Below are positions 24,569-35,679 of a stretch of DNA of 64,000 nt, piece by piece. This DNA comes from Schmidtea nova (lineage: Eukaryota): assembly GCA_044892505.1 (NCBI GenBank), contig CM097884.1, positions 127,534,001 through 127,598,000 of the forward strand. The letters run 5' to 3'. The notes beneath the pieces are model-generated. The model was not told the DNA's origin and did not search any database. It saw only the letters and a list, made by a program, of their open reading frames with translations. Made by a program: the position numbers and the translations under genes. Each line of letters starts with the position of its first letter. Positions within the stretch are counted from its first letter, which is position 1.

Positions 24569-24852
24569 ATTTTTATTATAATAACTAATAATCTGTACTA
24601 GATTCTTGATATCATATAAACAATAATGATAAGAATATTAATTTTAAGATATCATTTTAGAATACAACTATATATTTATTTTTTTTATTTGAACATAGCC
24701 CTCTAATACAAACCTTCAAAAGTCTTTTTCGACTCGATTAAGTTTTCAATGAAACCATAGATATGCAGATTTTTGTTGTTTACAAGATGGCTTGGTGTTT
24801 GATCCAGGCCAGTTGATCAAGGCTTGAGAGAAAAGATAAGCCAAACCCAATG

Positions 24853-25129
24853 TTAAAATTTAATTAGCGGACTACTTCCAACGAAAAACCCAACCATATA
24901 TGCCATAATATCATTACATAAATTCATAGAAACTGTCATTAAGACCCACATAATTCCATTGAATAAATTATCAATCATCAAATGCAAAGAATCGCCTAAT
25001 ATTAGTAGTGTCACATGAGTCCATTCAAACAATGTAAATAGTTGCAGATAATGCTTCTTCACCAAGATGAGAACGAGCCACCTAATGCCACAACTTTATA
25101 TATAGAACGATATAAATTGATGGTGAGAA
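24853..25129 (-). pseudogene. CDS2: CDP-diacylglycerol synthase fragment (3' part); 5' part at ~28376-28440, split by a Polinton-derived insertion
   Basis: LVKKHYLQLF..WTHVTLL..NLFNG..NDIMAYMVGFFVGSSPLIK matches CDS1/2; removing 25130-28375 restores LRSLFSHHQFISFY, with one in-frame stop. Confidence 0.85.
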
Positions 25130-25219
25130 AGTAGGTAGATGTGTGGAGCCGGGAACAAAGACATTATGACTCATTGCGTGGGCGGGAAAAAAGAACAAAG
25201 ACCCCCTCCCCCTCATCAA

Positions 25220-25480
25220 ATGGAATTTCGACTTGGAAAATATCGTACTATTATTCGAACTTTCATGCTGAATGTGGATATTTTAGAGGTAAATGTAACC
25301 AAGAAATTGGAAGAAATCAAACAAAGATTTCTCACATGTTCAATATGTAATATAAATAGAGTTGGCATTTTATATTTACCTTGTGGACATGTCATTATTT
25401 GTTCAAAATGTTTAAAAAATATTGATAAGTGTGAGTCTTGTGGTATTAATATTGATGAATATTATGTGATATACATATAA
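25220..25480 (+). CDS. Small IAP-type C3HC4 RING-finger protein (~86 aa from ATG 25220)
   Basis: CSIC..YLPCGHVIICSKC..IDKCESC..YVIYI at the extreme C-terminus, as in IAP/MDM2-type RINGs. Confidence 0.7.
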   Translation: MEFRLGKYRTIIRTFMLNVDILEVNVTKKLEEIKQRFLTCSICNINRVGILYLPCGHVIICSKCLKNIDKCESCGINIDEYYVIYI

Positions 25481-25569
25481 TGTCATACAAAATATATGTA
25501 TTTTCATTTAATTTATTTTTATCATTGGCTAAGAGAATGCACTTTGTGATTAATAATTAGTCTTTTTTG

Positions 25570-27467
25570 ACATCTTGTCTTTGTTAACTTGGCTTGCAAC
25601 TGCAATGTCTTTGTTAACTTGCATCTGTTTTGCAATGTCTTTGTTAATATTGCACATGAATTGCAGCGTCAAAATGGGTAGGAAAATAAATATATATTAC
25701 GTTGTGGTAGTTTAATTATTTTATTTTGACATCTTGAAGGTTTGAAAATATACACACACACATCTCAAATATCTTTTGCATGATATTTATATAGTTTTAA
25801 AAAATTTTGAACCCTTGAATATTTTTGAATATTTTTGAATATTTTTTATTAACTTGCATGTATGTCTTTGTTAACTTGTATCCACATTGCAATGTCTTTG
25901 TTAACTTGCATATGTATTGCAATGTCTTTGTTAACTTGCATATGTATTGCAATGTCTTTGTTAACTTGCATATGTATTGTTTTGGCATTNNNNNNNNNNN
26001 NNNNNNNNNNNNNNNNNNNNNNNNNNNNNNNNNNNNNNNNNNNNNNNNNNNNNNNNNNNNNNNNNNNNNNNNNNNNNNNNNNNNNNNNNNNNNNNNNNNN
26101 NNNNNNNNNNNNNNNNNNNNNNNNNNNNNNNNNNNNNNNNNNNNNNNNNNNNNNNNNNNNNNNNNNNNNNNNNNNNNNNNNNNNNNNNNNNNNNNNNNNN
26201 NNNNNNNNNNNNNNNNNNNNNNNNNNNNNNNNNNNNNNNNNNNNNNNNNNNGCATTACAATGTCTTTGTTAACTTGCATATGTATTGCAATGTCTTTGTT
26301 TAGTTATTTTGGCATTGAAATGTCTTTGTTAAGGTGTTTTTGGTAATGAAATGTCTTTGTTTAGATGTTTTGGCAATGATATGTCTTTGTTATGAATAAA
26401 TTCTATGTTTAAGAGTACATATATAATCTTTGAATTGTAATAAAAGTTCGAGTAATAAGCTTTGGCAGATAAAAACCATCACAAAAGATGTTCTGATTGT
26501 AAATGTTCTGCTAGTAAATGTTCGTGTCTCTGTTTAGTTATTTTGGCATTGATATGTCTTTGTTTAGGTGTTTTTGCAATGAAATATCTTTGTTTAATTA
26601 TTTTGGCATTGAAATGTCTTTGTTATGAAATTTGGCATTGAAATGTCTTTGTTATCAAATTTGGTAATGAAATGTCTTTGTTATGAAATTTGGCATTGAA
26701 ATGTCTTTGATAAGGAATTTGGCAATGAAATGTCTTTGTTTAGTTTTTTGGTATTGAAATGTCTTTGTTATGAAATTTGGCAATGAAATGTCTTTGTTTA
26801 GTTTTTTTGGCAATGAAATGTCTTTGTTTAGTTTTTGGCATTGAAATGTCTTTGTTTAGTTTTTGGCATTGAAATGTCTTTGTTTTGAAATTTGGCAATG
26901 AAATGCCTTTGTTTAGTTTTTTGGCAATGAATTGTCATTGTTTAGTTTTTGGCATTGAAATGTCTTTGTTATGAAATTTGGCAATGAAATGTCTTTGTTT
27001 AGTTTTTTGGCAATGAAATGTCTTTGTTTAGTTTTTTGGCAATGAATTGTCTTTGTTATGAAATTTGGCAATGAATTGTCTTTGTTATGAAATTTGGCAA
27101 TGAAATGTCTTTGTTTAGTTTTTTGGCATTGAAATGTCTTTGTTATGAAATTTGGCAATGAAATGTCTTTGTTTAGTTTTTTGGCATTGAAATGTCTTTG
27201 TTAATATTGCACATGGTTTTGCAATGTTTCTTGATGACTCATATTTGTGTTAAAAAATTTGTGTTAAAAAAATTTGTGTTAAAAAAATTTGTGTTAAAAA
27301 AATTTGTGTTAAAAAAAAATTTGAACACATACACATATGAATATGACCATCATACTCAACTTTCAATTACCTTTTGTTTGATACATATATTACATAGTTT
27401 TTAAAATTTTGAACCTTGGACCCTTCGAGGGTTGACCATCATACTCAACTCTCAATTACCTTTTGTT

Positions 27468-27515
<48 letters not shown>

Positions 27516-27744
27516 TATAAGGTTTGAAAGAATTTGAAGGTTTTTGACCCCTTGAAGGTTTAGCACCCACCATAGACCATCGAAGGTATGACCATTATGT
27601 GCACATCTCAATTACCTTTTGTTTGATATATATATATTATAAGTTTGAAAAAGGTTAAAGGTTTTTTACCCTTTGAAGGTTGAGCACACACCATACACCT
27701 TCGAGGGTATAACCATTGTGTGAACATCTCAATTACCTTTCAAA

Positions 27745-27795
<51 letters not shown>

Positions 27796-28140
27796 ATTTA
27801 AAAGAAATTTGAAGGTTTTGGATCCTTTGAAGGTTAAGCACCCACCATAAACCTTCGAGGGTATGACCAGCATACCTACCTCTCAAATACCTTTCGAATG
27901 ATATATATATATTATAAGGTTTGAAAAAGGTTGAAGGTTTTGCACCCTTTGAAGGTTGAGCACCCACCATAGACCTTCGAGGGTATGACCAGCATACCTA
28001 CCTCTAAAATACCTTTCGAATGATATATATATATTATAAGGTTTGAAAAAGGTTGAAGGTTTTGGACCCTTTGAAGGTTGAGCACCCACCATAGACCTTC
28101 GAGGGTATGACCATTGTATAGACCTCTCCAAGACCTTTCG
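25570..28140. repeat. Subterminal tandem arrays of the Polinton-like element (~30 bp, ~31-33 bp, 16 bp and ~120 bp units)
   Basis: Units AATGTCTTTGTTAACTTGCATATGTATTGC, GAAATGTCTTTGTTATGAAATTTGGCA-type, AAAAAATTTGTGTTAA, and GACCTTCGAGGGTATGACC units with (AT)n. Confidence 0.9.
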
Positions 28141-30281
28141 AATGATACCCTTGTTTGAAGGTTTGACCTTATTTAACCTTTAAAAATTCAAATTTAAAAT
28201 TTGAATTTGAAATGAGTCATCGATGACGTCATAAAATTCAAATTTGAAATGAGTCATCGATGAGTCATAAAAATTTTTCTACCCCCTCCCCCGGGAGGAG
28301 GGGGTCTTTGTTCTTTTTCCCGCCCACGCAATGAGTCATAATGTCTTTGTTCCCGGCTCCACACATCTACCTACTTCAGAAAATAGGGATCGCAGTAGAT
28401 TTTCTTTTGCCAATAATCTACGGAAATTTTCATTTAGATATACTTTGAAGCGATCTTTATGTGGATTATCGTCAGAGACACGCGAAAACATTAACACAAT
28501 TGTCTTATTTAAGTCACGAAGATAATGAGGATATTCTTTTGAATTGAAATAATTCCCATGGCATCTACGAATGAAACTTGCGGTGGGTTTTTTCATATTG
28601 TCATAATCCGTCATTTGATAAATAATTTCCCATTGAACCATAACAGATCCCATTGAACCATAACACATCCTTGCAATCAATTGTTTCCATCTTTTTCCAA
28701 TTCAAATTCAAAATTTTTAAAATTCCCGAAAAAAACCAATTTTCCAAATTACTCGATTAATTAAACAAAAACGTTCTAGAAAAAAATCCAAAGCATTAAA
28801 GCAAAGTTCGAAAAAATCCAAATCCAAATTTACCCAATTGGATTAATAAAACAAAACTAGATTTTAGAATAATCCATTAATTCTAAATCTCAAATAAAAC
28901 CGGCAACAAAAACGCGCACACAGACGCGTATCATAAATAGCAAAAAAATAAGCGCACACAGACGCTGATAATTAAAAAAAGCAATGCGCACACAGACGCT
29001 GACATCCAGAAATCACCAGCTTGGTTTGAAATTCAAAATGTTGTGTATCTTGTTGTGCACACGTGTTTTGTTATTAATATGTAAATTTTAACTATTTAAA
29101 ATAAATTTTTTTGAGTTTTCATTGTTATAATCTGTAAATAAAATTGAAATTCCTCCAAAATGGCTAAATTCAAAATTTCAAAAATCTTACAAAAATAACG
29201 CGCGACATGTAATATCTTACTACTTTCCAGACTCATAGTAATCGCTTAATTAACTACTTTCATCTAAATTCTGAAATTATCTATACCTTCTGGCTATCAT
29301 CAAAATATAATTAATTATTTATTCTGCTCTTTAACTACCAATAATCATGTTGTCTTGATATGGATACATTGTGACTTTTCTAATTGTTTACCCAACTTGA
29401 TTTTTTTTGTTTTTCTTAACTAATTAATTAACTAATTTAAAATTTCATATTTTACTCACATTTTTCGGTTTTTGAACCTTTTTGAACGTTTTATGATAAA
29501 TCATTTTACATGTTGTAACTCCTCTATCACTTGTCCATTTCTAGATTTTAAATTGCCTGATTAATAATTTGGGTTTTTCCCAGTCTATGTTGTCATAATA
29601 TTTCCCTTTGCAATCTGTTTATTCTTGATTATGATTATACATCTCTATTTAGCTTCTTTTCAATTTTACAAAATAATTTTAGTCTTTACAACCTCAACAA
29701 TATTATATATTGAAACCTTTCTATGACGTAAAGTTCCATTTTTTGTATAAACGAAAATACTCGACGATTCTGATGAGTTAAATTTTTTCAATAAAAATAG
29801 ATACAATAAAATTATTTTTTAATAAAATTATTTTCTATTTATCATTATTTTATTATGAATCACATTTTTAAGGGGAAAGTTCTAAATTCTTGATTTAGAC
29901 TAAAATCATTTTTAATTGCAAATATTTTTTTTTAATATTAAAGGAAAGTAAAAAAATGATTTAACAAACATTTGTTAAACTAAAACTATTGAATCAATTA
30001 TAATAAAATTTATTTTTCTCATTTCAAATAAAAAAGTAATAAAACAACATGAGTATGTAGTTGTATTCTAAAATGATATCATAAAATTAATATTCTTATC
30101 ATTATTATTTTAATGATATCAAAAATCNNNNNNNNNNNNNNNNNNNNNNNNNNNNNNNNNNNNNNNNNNNNNNNNNNNNNNNNNNNNNNNNNNNNNNNNN
30201 NNNNNNNNNNNNNNNNNNNNNNNNNNNNNNNNNNNNNNNNNNNNNNNNNNNNNNNNNNNNNNNNNNNNNNNNNNNNNNNNN

Positions 30282-30660
30282 GCAAATAAGATTTTATTAA
30301 TAGAAATTGATCTCCAATTGACAAGTTGGTCTTTGGCAACCGGAAATCCTGACCTATGATAACAAGAGTTGAAATGAGCAAGCTCCATGACAGTCCGTAT
30401 TGATTGATTTCTGGTGATGGCGAATAATCGTTTAATCGAGATTGATTGTGATCCAATGTATTGATTTGTAGATTTTTTGAGTTATACATTTCAGATTTGT
30501 CTGGATAGTATATTAATATTGATTCAGTTAATGACAAGCATCTTCCAGTTTGTACGGCTTCTTTACGCATTCCAGCAACGAAACATTTCTGCAATCTACG
30601 GAACTGGCAATTGTTTCTTCTTTGAATATCGACTACGCAATCTCCACTAGAGTAGAACTG
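30282..30660 (-). pseudogene. Nuclear receptor fragment (second zinc finger plus start of LBD, NR2-like), degenerate
   Basis: DCVVDIQRRNNCQFRRLQKCFVAGMRKEAVQTGR with two expected Cys lost; downstream LSIGDQFLLIKS resembles the LBD signature. Confidence 0.75.
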
Positions 30661-30665
30661 ATAAT

Positions 30666-32559
30666 TGTTGTCATTTGATGAAAACGAGTCGCTGTGAATG
30701 TCTTGAGTGAATTGGCATATCAAATCATTGTTAACAGCTTGCATTTTTTTTGATCAGCGTGAAAAAGTGAAAATTATGTAAATATTAAAACAACATCCAA
30801 TTTAATCCATTTAATAATTAATTAATTTAAAAGATTGAAAATTTAATCTAAGGCACTACAATAGCCCCCGCCGAAGTACGCGGAGCGTCTCTAAGCTAGA
30901 AAATGGATTTGGGTGTTGGGTGAGTCACTGAAGGTGATAATCGGAGAGATATTGAGGGAGTTTACGTGTTCGCCTAGAAGAGAATGGCGGGTTGTCTTGA
31001 GAAAGTTGGGTATTTGTCGTTTCTGTAAGGGTCTTCAGTTGTTCCGTGTCTTCTTGAATGTCTTCATCTATAGGATCTTCTTTCATGATATGGTAATTTG
31101 GTCGTTCATCATACTCAAGTGTGCAAAAGGATGGTTTTAATCTTGATAGGTTGACCATAATGTGATTGTTATCAATTTCTAGTTTCGCTGTGTTTTTGTA
31201 TAGTTCGATGATGCGGAATGGGCCTTTGTATCTAGGTTTGAGGTTTGATGAATCAATTGTCTTTATCCATGCGTGGGTGGCAGATGAAAGTGATTGTGGT
31301 ATATACGGTTTGTATGATGTAGAATATGTGAAAGATGGATTTGTATCAAGACTCAAAAAATGATTGCGAGTGAGGTTGATTTCCTCTAGTGACGATTCGT
31401 TCTGTAGATCTATGAGTTCGTTGGGCATGGATGTGTTGGAACCGAACAAAAGTTGTGAAGGTGACACGCCACTTGAGCGGTTGGGAGTGTTGTGCCACCC
31501 GAGCAAGACGAATGGTAATGCTTTGGTCCACGAAGTTGTCGTTGAGAGTATTCTGAGGGATGCTTTCAAAGTCCGGTGGGCGCGTTCCACAAGACCGTTT
31601 GTTTGTGGGTGATATGAGCTGGTACGTAAATGACTGATGCCGAGGCTGGTGGTCAGATGATCGAAAAGGTCTGATTCAAATTGTGTTCCTTGGTCTGTGA
31701 TTATGGCGGTTGGGATTCCATAACGCGAAAACCAAGTGGATATTAAGGCGTGTGCAACCGTTTTTGCGGTGATGTCAGAAACTGGAATAGCCTCGAACCA
31801 GCGTGTTTTCCTATCGATCATTGTCAGTATATAGCAGAATCCGTCGTCTGCGGGGAGTTTGCCTACTAAGTCGATGTGGAGTATGTCGAATCTTGAACCA
31901 GTCGGGAATGGTGTGATTGGTGGTTTAGTATGTTTGTTCACTTTGTGTTGTTGGCAGCCTTTACATTCAGAGACCCACTGTTTAACGTCTTTAAATAATG
32001 AGAACCAAGTGACCTTTTGTCGTATGAGATGGTATGTGGACTTAATTCCTGGATGGTGTAGATTATGAATCGCGAAGAATGCTTCTTTCCTGAGTAACGA
32101 GTGCAAAATTGGTCTAAGAGTGTTTTTATACGTTGTGTCATAATGTATACCGTCTATTATCTCAAGCGAGTCTTTGAAGCGGGCGAGGTCAGCTGTCGTT
32201 GGTGGAGTCGAACGGAGAATTTGTTGGGTGAAAACTGGTGTAGAGGTAATTGATGCAGCAATGTTTCTAGAAAGATAATCGGCGACCACATTATCTTTGC
32301 CCGAAACGTGAACAAATTTAATGTCAAAAGTTGATAGGTATGTTATCTGACGATGTACTCTGTTCGATGGGTCTTTCATGGTAAGGCAGTGGATGAATGT
32401 CTTGAGTGAATTGGCATATCAAATCATTGTTAACAGCTTGCATTTTTTTTGATAAGCGTGAAAAAGTGAAAATTATGTAAATATTAAAACAACATCCAAT
32501 TTAATCCATTTAATAATTAATTAATTTAAAAGATTGAAAATTTAATCTAAGGCACTACA
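30666..32559 (-). mobile_element. Deleted Ty3/Gypsy element with short LTRs (3' LTR 30666-30860; 5' LTR ~32394-32559, truncated)
   Basis: ~165-bp direct repeat starting TGTAGTG on minus; purine-rich GGCGGGGGC before the 3' LTR; flanks ATAAT/ATCAT may be a TSD. Confidence 0.7.
30925..32379 (-). CDS. Gypsy pol C-terminus: end of RNase H and complete integrase
   Basis: HVSGKDNVVADYLSR; HHCC (HNLHHPG..CKGC); DLVG, TDQGTQFES, YHPQTNGLVERAH; LKPRYKGPFRI (GPY/F); NLSRLKP. Confidence 0.95.
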   Translation of the reverse strand: MKDPSNRVHRQITYLSTFDIKFVHVSGKDNVVADYLSRNIAASITSTPVFTQQILRSTPPTTADLARFKDSLEIIDGIHYDTTYKNTLRPILHSLLRKEAFFAIHNLHHPGIKSTYHLIRQKVTWFSLFKDVKQWVSECKGCQQHKVNKHTKPPITPFPTGSRFDILHIDLVGKLPADDGFCYILTMIDRKTRWFEAIPVSDITAKTVAHALISTWFSRYGIPTAIITDQGTQFESDLFDHLTTSLGISHLRTSSYHPQTNGLVERAHRTLKASLRILSTTTSWTKALPFVLLGWHNTPNRSSGVSPSQLLFGSNTSMPNELIDLQNESSLEEINLTRNHFLSLDTNPSFTYSTSYKPYIPQSLSSATHAWIKTIDSSNLKPRYKGPFRIIELYKNTAKLEIDNNHIMVNLSRLKPSFCTLEYDERPNYHIMKEDPIDEDIQEDTEQLKTLTETTNTQLSQDNPPFSSRRTRKLPQYLSDYHLQ

Positions 32560-32562
32560 ATC

Positions 32563-33442: not shown

Positions 33443-33506
33443 CTATTTATCCAATATACACTTATCCGATATACATTTACTCTATATACATTTATAGAAT
33501 AGAAAC

Positions 33507-35679
33507 CCCCTGCTAATCCCAAAGGATCAAAGATTCTAGCTAAACAACTAAGAAATCCTCGTTTCGAGAGACATTGTTGACTTGGTGGCTTGACATCGTA
33601 ACCAAACTTATCCTCTGCCGCCACCCAAACTAGTCCCAGGGTTTTTACTGCCACCTTGTTCTCCTCGTTCAAACTTAATAACTTTGATATCCTCTCTAAA
33701 GGGATAGTTTCTAATACCTTTTTGTCATTAGTGAGCCATTTGTTCGTAACCATTCCTGCCTTCTCCCAAATACCAATAATCTCATCCTTGATCCTAACCG
33801 CCTCCTCGACCGATTGAAAAGAGTCCATCGTGTCATCCATGTACGTGGATTCTATTATTGTTTCTGCCGCCCTCGGAAACCTTTCTCGAAATCTCTCCGC
33901 ATTTCGTCTGGTGACTAGCTGTGCTAGAAACGGAGATATGTTTAGTCCGAAGACTAGCCGTTCGAATTCAAAACCCTCAGTTTTTCCATCTTCCTTCCAA
34001 ATGAATCTTAAGTATTTTCTATCCTCTGGATTTACCTTTATCTGGAGGTACATTTCTTGTATATCACAAGCAATCGCCACTGAATGTTTTCTGAATCGTA
34101 ATAGTATCTCAAACAAATCATTTTGTAGCTTTGGTCCTTGCTCAATAGTATCATTTAAATTAATACCGTTACTTTTCGCTGCTGCATCAAAGACTATTCT
34201 CATCTTGGTTGTCTCCTTGTCCATTTTTATCACCGGAAAATGTGGCAACCACCATCTTGTCTCACGAAATTCGCTCTCTGCCAACACCCTAATATACTTT
34301 TTTCGCACGTAGTCATTGATTACCTCTTTGTAGCTTTCTTTTAACCTACTGTCTTTCGCCAACCGATTGCCTAGACTCCTCAGACGCGTCTCCGCCATTT
34401 TCATATTCTCTTGAAGTTGATACTTGTTCTCCCTCCATAACAAGCTAACCGTGAACCTTCCATCCTCGCACGACATACCTTCGATCGCCTTTTGCATTAA
34501 TATTCCTTCACTCTGACTGAACTGATTCTTTTCAATGTGAGTTTCCTCAATTTCCCAAAATTGCCGCATCTGGTTCTCCAATCTCTCTGTTTTAGAAAAA
34601 TAGCTCTGGACAAAATGAGAGTGTTGCGGAGCTTGATCTCCATTGATCTTGCCCAGACATGTCCATCCGAGAGGCGTCAGTCTGGCAACCGGCTCATCCA
34701 TCATCCTTCCTACTTCTCGAATAGATCTGTGCAAATGGGGATAGTCGGCCCCAACTAAAACATCTATCTGCGGTCTTTTCCCAAGAACCGGGAATCGAAT
34801 ATCCTTTAGGTGCTCCCAGTTATACGCCAGCTTTTGCCAATTGCATGCTCTTAAGTCCCCCGTGACGCTTTTGACGACCAGAGCCTTAAAGTTGACTTTC
34901 ACCTTGTTATTATTGCTTGCCAACATCACCTCTATCGGCCTCGTTTCCAACATTTCCGATTTCCCCCCAATCACGCCAACTGGAATATTTTCCCATTGTC
35001 CCCCAACGCCTAATTTCTGAGCAACCCAATCACTAATGTAACTCACATTACTTGCATCGTCAAGTAATGCATTTACTCGGAATTCCTTCCCTTTATTAAT
35101 TAATTTGATCGGAATCGTTCTCAATGGCACATACATGTTCTGACTTTGTTCTGCGTGACAGGTCACCATTGACGTATTTTTATTCTCATCTTTCTTTTGA
35201 CCGTCATTTATTTTGACCCCTGGGCTATGCAGTAAGAAATGATGTTTTAACTTACAGTTTTCATTTTTACATTGACTGGGTTTCCCACAGTTCCTAACCA
35301 TGTGACCTGCCGACAGACAATTAAAACATAACCCGTTATTTTTCACAAACTCATGACGCTCTTTCGCATCATACCTTAAAAAGTCTGGGCATCGGTTTAA
35401 ATAATGTTCTCCTCTGCATTTCTTACATTTTAGTGTCGTTTTTCGTTCTCCACCAGCTTCTACCTTCGGATTGTTATCCACGAAATTTGTAACCCTCTTC
35501 TTATTTTCAATCTCCTTTCTATTTCCTGGCTTTCGCTCTCCAAACAATATATTCAAAGCTTTGCGATGCCTGTCAGCTTCTCTTTTTACCCATTCTGCCA
35601 AGGTTTGTACATTTGCCTCCTTCCCTGACTCACAATTGCGTGCCCACTGTATCAGCATGGTTTCCGGTAACTTTTTCAA
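33507..35679 (-). pseudogene. BEL/Pao gag C-terminus, protease and RT, 3'-truncated at the start of RNase H
   Basis: Three Cys motifs (CKKCRGEH..C, CFNCLSAGH..C, C..C..HHFLLH), ALLDDASNVSYI, WWLPHFPV, RIVFDAAAK, DIQEMYLQI, YMDD, RIFDPLG; codons after ~33507 run into unrelated repeat. Confidence 0.93.

Follow-up and report, generated by a model that had tools for sequence, protein, structure and literature searches.

The window, that is, the whole 64,000-nucleotide stretch of Schmidtea nova DNA that was analysed, contains two loci that share a short motif. At the locus considered first (locus 2), positions 28376-29018 and 24796-25129 are the two parts of an old solo long terminal repeat (LTR), dead and split by a later insert. 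It belongs to a Bel/Pao subfamily whose LTRs carry part of a CDP-DAG synthase (CDS) gene as cargo. The features are, in the reading direction of the LTR:

29019..29024 (5′ copy) and 24790-24795, no strand: 6-bp target-site duplication
28376..29018, minus strand: 5′ part of the solo LTR, CDS-cargo Bel/Pao subfamily, begins with TG, 84-92% identity to unsplit copies
28914..28999, minus strand: three copies of the 14-bp LTR motif (word match in window and genome), likely putative promoter or enhancer repeats
28691..28913, minus strand: T/G-rich linker with a shared box at 28835-28853 (sequence comparison), likely a 5′ UTR
28649..28720, minus strand: mosaic block 1 (start block), common to LTRs with other cargo (L109, L110, L133, L141, L266)
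28505..28648, minus strand: mosaic block 2, confined to the CDS-cargo subfamily
28437..28504, minus strand: mosaic block 3, common to a CDS-bearing repeat type (L116, L118-L124)
28376..28436, minus strand: start of the CDS cargo, spanning the first exon junction with its 7.5-kb intron gone (host gene alignment)
25130..28375, no strand: later insert of 3,246 bp with 84-bp inverted ends, AGTAG termini and a 6-bp near-duplication (1 mismatch)
25139-25480: RING-finger open reading frame (ORF) inside the insert, the sole insert ORF scanned (Pfam)
24796..25129, minus strand: 3′ part of the solo LTR, ends with CA (alignment with unsplit copies)
24601-24689 and 30038-30127: inverted-repeat pair around the solo LTR

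The motif GCGCACACAGACGC starts at 28914, 28952, 28986, 38726 and 38754. These five copies in the 64-kb window lie exactly where the first-pass annotation had placed them (three times at 28914-28999, twice at 38726-38767), and no further copy was found in the window with up to 2 mismatches allowed; the shuffled window yields a mean of 0.03 copies. The similar linkers that had been described were recovered as well, one word at 28835 and 38508 and a second at 28885 and 38577, but a spacing of 216-234 bp common to both loci was not: motif and ATG are 287 nt apart at locus 1 and 223-245 nt apart at locus 2. An antisense poly(A)-like hexamer is present in 43 of 43 LTR linkers (e.g. at 28835-28853), compared with 12 of 43 for the sense form, which may be explained by T-rich composition.

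The 1.25-Gb genome contains 10,873 exact copies of the motif and none of the reversed control. The first 100 matches on C1 fall into 63 clusters, some elements being represented by both of their LTRs. In 42 of the 63 clusters the motif is followed by an ORF of 150 aa or more, compared with 6 of the 47 clusters whose opposite side offers 1 kb or more of flank and with 11% of 300 random windows, so that the motif is not the common dispersed repeat or core promoter lacking ORF enrichment that the annotation had held possible. The ORF was shorter than 100 aa in 9/63 clusters; host families in Pfam were matched by 32/63. We conclude that the motif is an LTR marker of a Bel/Pao clade, although it lies upstream of only 43 of the 70 primer-binding sites (PBS) described below.

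For the 343-bp cargo region there are 619 candidate relatives in the genome, of which 40 were scored and 30 fetched. Nearly all of the fetched relatives are unsplit, matching 28378-28720 and then directly 25134-24796, and form units of ~0.8-1.1 kb that start with TG and end with CA. The CDS cargo reaches ~24813, ~17 nt short of the LTR end, whose terminal word has 317 genomic matches with at most one mismatch. Target duplications of the relatives are mostly 5 bp long; among 17 copies scored at both ends, 9 were exact and 2 further ones exact with a one-base offset. Twelve genomic copies of the CDS LTR are followed by the PBS, with a second LTR of 95-96.6% identity in three of them. The internal parts encode ubiquitin and a Gag of lineage B, and two elements keep pieces of the Bel/Pao protease, RT, RNase H and integrase. 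The CDP-DAG synthase fragment is genuine (PF01148), and its in-frame fusion to the preceding segment, which had been read directly from the window, exists naturally in unsplit copies such as L094, L097, L149 and L161, with the frame open through the PBS in L094 and L097. The window copy itself is broken by a frame disruption in its 5′ part, by the insert and by in-frame stops in the right-hand piece (24796..25129). Recombination between LTRs would have left the solo copy at locus 2, the insert arriving later.

Polinton/Maverick elements have termini of AG repeats, long terminal inverted repeats (TIRs) and a 6-bp duplication. That a Polinton derivative split the locus holds to the extent that the insert is real and its ends are Polinton-like, the assignment being one made from these ends; no pPolB, integrase or capsid ORF is evident in the 3.2-kb sequence, part of which is N and for which the domain scan covered the RING ORF. 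The terminal repeat of the insert recurs at 44210-44378 and in another element of the CDS family (L100). The surrounding inverted pair (24601-24689 and 30038-30127) is probably a non-autonomous DNA transposon that received the solo LTR. An origin of the locus from this pair by Pack-type TIR capture was rejected, as a target duplication belonging to the LTR lies inside the pair, which makes the pair the host site. Next to it, 30282-32561 contains a Gypsy-type integrase ORF, flanked by 168-bp direct repeats (30695-30862 and 32394-32561) and followed by a nuclear-receptor C4 zinc-finger fragment.

The second element of the window (locus 1) retains more of its interior:

37868..38810, minus strand: 5′ LTR with two motif copies and TCP1 and HECT cargo (motif and Pfam)
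37846..37863, minus strand: 18-nt PBS, complementary to the 3′ end of the host initiator tRNA-Met, in frame
36465..36692, minus strand: ubiquitin, its Gly-Gly end abutting Gag (Pfam and comparison)
33445..36464, minus strand: Bel/Pao Gag-protease-RT remnant, lineage C, frameshifted and 3′-truncated (Pfam and comparison)

Fragments of HSP70 and others lie upstream of this ubiquitin in the same frame. The Gag/Pol of locus 1 is 38-44% identical to that of lineage B, the carrier of the CDS LTR. The proposal of an LTR unit loaded with different host fragments is supported, with the refinement that the two loci do not share one identical unit; they carry LTRs of one Bel/Pao clade, with different host cargo, in front of two Gag lineages. 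The lineages were taken from a quick internal Gag tree, in which the mis-parsed L276, L280, L289, L290 and L293 were ignored. A short leader peptide motif (window 37592-37636) is in frame in lineages A, B and C as well as in the CDS family, and the outside protein P0124 has a similar word ahead of its ubiquitin; the motif may represent an RNA signal or else an ancestral N-terminus.

In full elements of the clade, the order LTR cargo, initiator tRNA-Met (iMet) PBS, leader, ubiquitin and Gag-Pol occupies a single frame, and a polypurine tract precedes the 3′ LTR. The exact 21-nt PBS word occurs at 1,467 sites in the genome and matches 18 nt of a host tRNA-Met(CAT) with initiator features. Initiator tRNA-Met genes form a 458-bp tandem array at C1:510.09-510.13 Mb (L314); the 3′ word of this tRNA, the primer of the clade, has 1,034 genomic matches. 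From the first 77 PBS sites we kept 70 loci, the other 7 being close or tandem neighbours. In one fixed frame, 57/70 loci have 100 or more open codons upstream of the PBS, compared with 0 and 2 for the other frames, and at 42/70 the frame, as a reading frame, remains open from the PBS to the end of ubiquitin. Sixty-two LTR ORFs qualified, of which 50 were scanned, the other 12 being repeats of earlier loci. Host Pfam families were matched by 29 of the 50. As a control, less sensitive because its pieces are shorter, 115 off-frame or antisense pieces no shorter than 45 aa were scanned, and only two repeat artefacts matched Pfam. All identified cargo is in its native sense and frame. Twenty host families were recognized in LTR or leader, named from Pfam families and our own reading: EF2, SAMDC, ABCD, HECT, HSP70, HSP90, TCP1, PP1, eIF3L, FKBP, proteasome alpha, UBA1, CDC14, FHA, enolase, TPR, APC2, DCC1, CDS and ubiquitin. 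Matches that came from repeats or lay above 1e-3 (MutS_I, MCM_C, IpaB, HALZ) were excluded. Further pieces we take to be calmodulin and glutathione reductase. As the copies are related, copy counts do not equal independent events.

The host CDS gene was located at C1:279.308-279.325 Mb. The cargo in the window corresponds to four of its exons at 80-89% identity and lacks the introns of 7.5 kb, 2.7 kb and ~43 nt; because it crosses three host introns, it derives from spliced mRNA. The second of these introns (C1:279.318-279.321 Mb) reads GC-AG. DCC1 cargo matches its host gene at 97-99% identity across a 6.5-kb intron and UBA1 cargo at 98% across a 45-nt intron. Coverage of the introns in four read runs is even, so these runs behave as DNA. 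The DCC1 LTR is layered, leading from a UBA1-type start through ~1 kb of nearly full-length DCC1 into an FKBP-type LTR tail, with an overlap of 15 nt at the 3′ switch; the other junctions were viewed by eye only. Cargo dN/dS values, which come from small counts, are 0.23 for DCC1 (6 N, 6 S), 1.84 for UBA1 (7 N, 1 S) and 0.41-0.64 for CDS. More intron-less CDS copies exist (L114, L115, L116-L124), some of them far longer, and five that were checked had no motif or PBS within 1.5 kb.

The segment in front of the CDS cargo, MTDYDNMKKPT...DRFKVY, was previously taken as one piece awaiting identification. It is a mosaic of the three blocks listed above, and the repeats sharing block 3 (L116, L118-L124) have a different block upstream. 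Searches of protein, genome and structure databases did not find its parent. There was no Pfam match; phmmer against 1.84 billion proteins gave one match, to a repetitive protein and judged spurious; atlas matches stayed under 0.9 and were unnamed; no longer homologue turned up; and the peptide matched only element copies among the 150 scored of 432 genomic candidates. RPN5, a weak lead from the PDB (E 0.5), was rejected because the host RPN5 gene gave no match.

The cargo is exchanged among closely related elements. A Ub-Gag query of lineage B has 2,446 candidates in the genome. Thirty copies identical over 125 Ub-Gag residues bear three cargo types, and in 27 of the 30 the frame is open starting within the LTR. 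Between locus 1 and the lineage-A element L061, identity is 93.6% over the stretch that begins with the LTR cargo and closes with ubiquitin, after which a different Gag follows; this abrupt end of the identity indicates that the whole 5′ module was exchanged between Gag lineages. Among the length variants of one subfamily, 18 of 19 differ by multiples of 36 nt, and in some copies the cargo is overwritten or replaced by runs of 36-nt repeats. Ten copies, chosen because their ORFs are long, encode 2,220-2,333 aa. Three of them were scanned and read cargo, HSP90 piece, Ub, DUF1759, protease, RT, Peptidase_A17 and DUF5641, with no separate rve match, the integrase region being seen in separate comparisons. 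Since the LTR pairs are 100% identical in 5 of these 10 cargo-bearing copies, the clade was recently active with cargo aboard. The element L064 has a different cargo tail at the end of each of its two LTRs, a recombination within one insertion. Deleted derivatives (L061-L065, L067-L070) keep cargo, Ub and Gag, some also the protease, and have RT/IN replaced by a long acidic, coiled-coil-like open frame. Many of the young copies (L061-L070, L216-L224) are found in (AAT)n microsatellites, a possible sign of target preference; this is not so for most of the older CDS solo LTRs.

Ubiquitin was found at 63/70 PBS loci, with a Gly-Gly end in 55 of the 56 whose end was parsed. The residue before Gly-Gly is Cys in 24/56 and Asn in 3/56, and Arg72 is replaced in 7. 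Deubiquitinases prefer LRLRGG, so that with Cys or Asn tails cleavage may be slow or absent. The CDS lineage has lost the surface around Ile44 and kept Gly-Gly. In one lineage Met directly follows Gly-Gly, and the leaders contain in-frame Met codons; Gag could therefore start downstream of the LTR. Within lineages, dN/dS is 0.26-0.53 for ubiquitin (small counts), 0.59-0.69 for upstream codons and 0.13-0.40 for Gag, which as a codon-based estimate points to moderate constraint on ubiquitin. Outside homologues were sought with Gag alone, as a Ub+Gag query was swamped by polyubiquitins. PF05380 is present in all of the closest outside proteins. Among the top four in the set of 15, the three that were read (P0122, P0124, P0125; 32-40% Gag identity) place a ubiquitin, or its tail, with Gly-Gly in front of Gag, preceded in P0124 by fragments of kinesin and Sec24; a ubiquitin domain is not listed for the other 12.

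We are nearly certain of the basic anatomy, that is, of LTRs that carry cargo captured through RNA. How the parts work together is a reading of sequence, which we favour with some reserve: the LTR would contain a swappable in-frame slot for spliced host mRNA, filled by template switching of RT, with Gag freed by deubiquitinases. Translation would begin inside the LTR and pass through the PBS. Minus-strand strong-stop synthesis from the PBS would cross the cargo region first, where RT could switch to co-packaged host or element RNA and back, and the new cargo would be copied into both LTRs. Captures that break the frame would lose Gag-Pol; as translation of Gag-Pol would run through the captured sequence, only captures that keep the frame would persist. 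The cargo would then mostly be a passenger, rendered harmless by ubiquitin, as host deubiquitinases cutting after ubiquitin would give Gag a constant N-terminus whatever cargo lies upstream. The broader notion of a standing exon-shuffling cassette, in which the variable LTR slot is insulated from Gag-Pol by a host-cleaved ubiquitin that also serves as the exchange point between lineages, is put forward tentatively, with slightly less than even confidence.

One alternative takes the motif for a dispersed repeat or core promoter beside unrelated retrocopies, or the cargo for DNA acquired in Pack-type fashion. The 9 motif clusters without an ORF of at least 100 aa and the inverted repeats around locus 2 would suit it, but paired LTRs, PBS, polypurine tract and Gag-Pol are present, introns are removed exactly, and at locus 2 a separate target duplication flanks the LTR within the bracketing element. 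This alternative is already refuted, and we give it practically no weight. Two others accept the capture and differ on its consequences. The cargo might be adaptive, either as a shield against small-RNA silencing or because E1, HECT, proteasome, chaperonin and FKBP fragments act as proteostasis decoys. All identified cargo being native in sense and frame speaks for this, yet a filter for open frames in AT-rich DNA also selects native-frame pieces; many sources are ubiquitin, proteasome and chaperone genes, but these are likely just abundant mRNAs. The nearly full-length DCC1 with its dN/dS of 0.23 counts in favour and, as judged from codon changes, does not fit a pure passenger. The 7 N to 1 S of UBA1 and the overwriting of cargo by 36-nt repeats count against, and we regard adaptive cargo as unlikely.

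A little less probable still is that ubiquitin stays on Gag as a budding/ESCRT or degradation signal, the cargo being tolerated or removed by the protease of the element. About half of the copies have a non-canonical tail, which agrees with attached ubiquitin, and budding of HIV is reportedly aided by ubiquitin on Gag. However, the CDS lineage loses the Ile44 surface and keeps Gly-Gly, and Gly-Gly adjoins Gag even in the relatives with 32-40% Gag identity.

The usual description of gene capture by LTR elements is that of a rare mishap which leaves the element crippled. In this clade, complete and recently active elements carry cargo routinely, and the cargo changes faster than Gag. Because it lies within the LTR, each solo LTR likely combines a promoter with a chimeric host ORF. 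The genome has over 10,000 copies of the motif and 1,467 exact PBS sites, and cargos match their parents at 98-99% identity; it holds a record of template switching at scale, with which one can test which mRNAs enter retrotransposon particles and how a retroelement comes to tolerate sequence that it has transduced. The many pseudo-copies of housekeeping genes will also complicate annotation, the mapping of reads and the design of RNAi. If the cassette notion is true, the clade continually produces thousands of promoter-equipped chimeric host-gene ORFs, most left as solo LTRs, and they would be a built-in source of new genes and possibly camouflage against silencing.

Several known systems share parts of this arrangement. 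According to its ICTV profile (PMC8742986), the family Belpaoviridae has LTRs of 0.2-1.2 kb, genomes of 4.2-10 kb, an 18-nt PBS for tRNA-Arg or tRNA-Gly and a non-coding leader. The elements described here agree in LTRs of 0.8-1.1 kb, a genome of ~7 kb, target duplication, polypurine tract, a single Gag-Pol in the order PR-RT-RH-IN and the domains DUF1759, Peptidase_A17 and DUF5641. They differ in an iMet PBS, which we read as a variant, in an LTR and leader that are open in frame and thus coding by sequence, and in the ubiquitin before Gag; the word ubiquitin is absent from the Bel/Pao survey that includes the Flow superfamily (PMC3118150). An iMet primer and a PBS within the reading frame are shared with yeast Ty1, where the PBS lies inside the GAG frame (PMC4974528); Ty1 has the Ty1/copia order, and neither host cargo nor ubiquitin is reported in the portion of that paper considered. 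Host-derived ubiquitin upstream of an element protein has a parallel in cytopathic pestiviruses, in which captured host ubiquitin lets cellular hydrolases create the authentic NS3 N-terminus (PMC8310069), and by analogy cleavage may occur here. As far as that account extends, the pestivirus cases are sporadic insertions in an RNA virus, whereas here ubiquitin is fixed across lineages behind a variable cargo slot. The giant Gypsy element Burro (~30 kb; PMC6431247) encodes polyproteins with host-like extra domains, including ubiquitin/SUMO-like ones; in the part of the paper used here, these are stable internal accessory domains, in contrast to the swappable LTR slot for recent mRNA fragments. 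The available text of the planarian genome papers (PMC11410931; bioRxiv 10.64898/2025.12.11.693146) mentions only Gypsy and DNA expansions. In the openly accessible article texts that were searched, no account of LTR-borne cargo or Ub-Gag in Bel/Pao was found.

For animals, Tan et al. (2016, PMC5131818) describe LTR-mediated retroposition, which in the accessible part of the study involves spliced partial mRNA, microsimilarity at the switches, multi-gene chimeras (one in a Pao element) and re-amplification, with 15 events in fly. The intron-less partial host mRNAs found here (CDS, DCC1, UBA1) are alike. The retrocopies described there replace internal ORF parts, are rare and leave the element non-autonomous; here the cargo sits in both LTRs, in frame with a complete Gag-Pol, and is normal in thousands of copies. 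On this comparison, which goes as far as those excerpts, the Bel/Pao clade shows gene capture by LTRs in a new form, and the template-switch chemistry that would underlie it has already been described.
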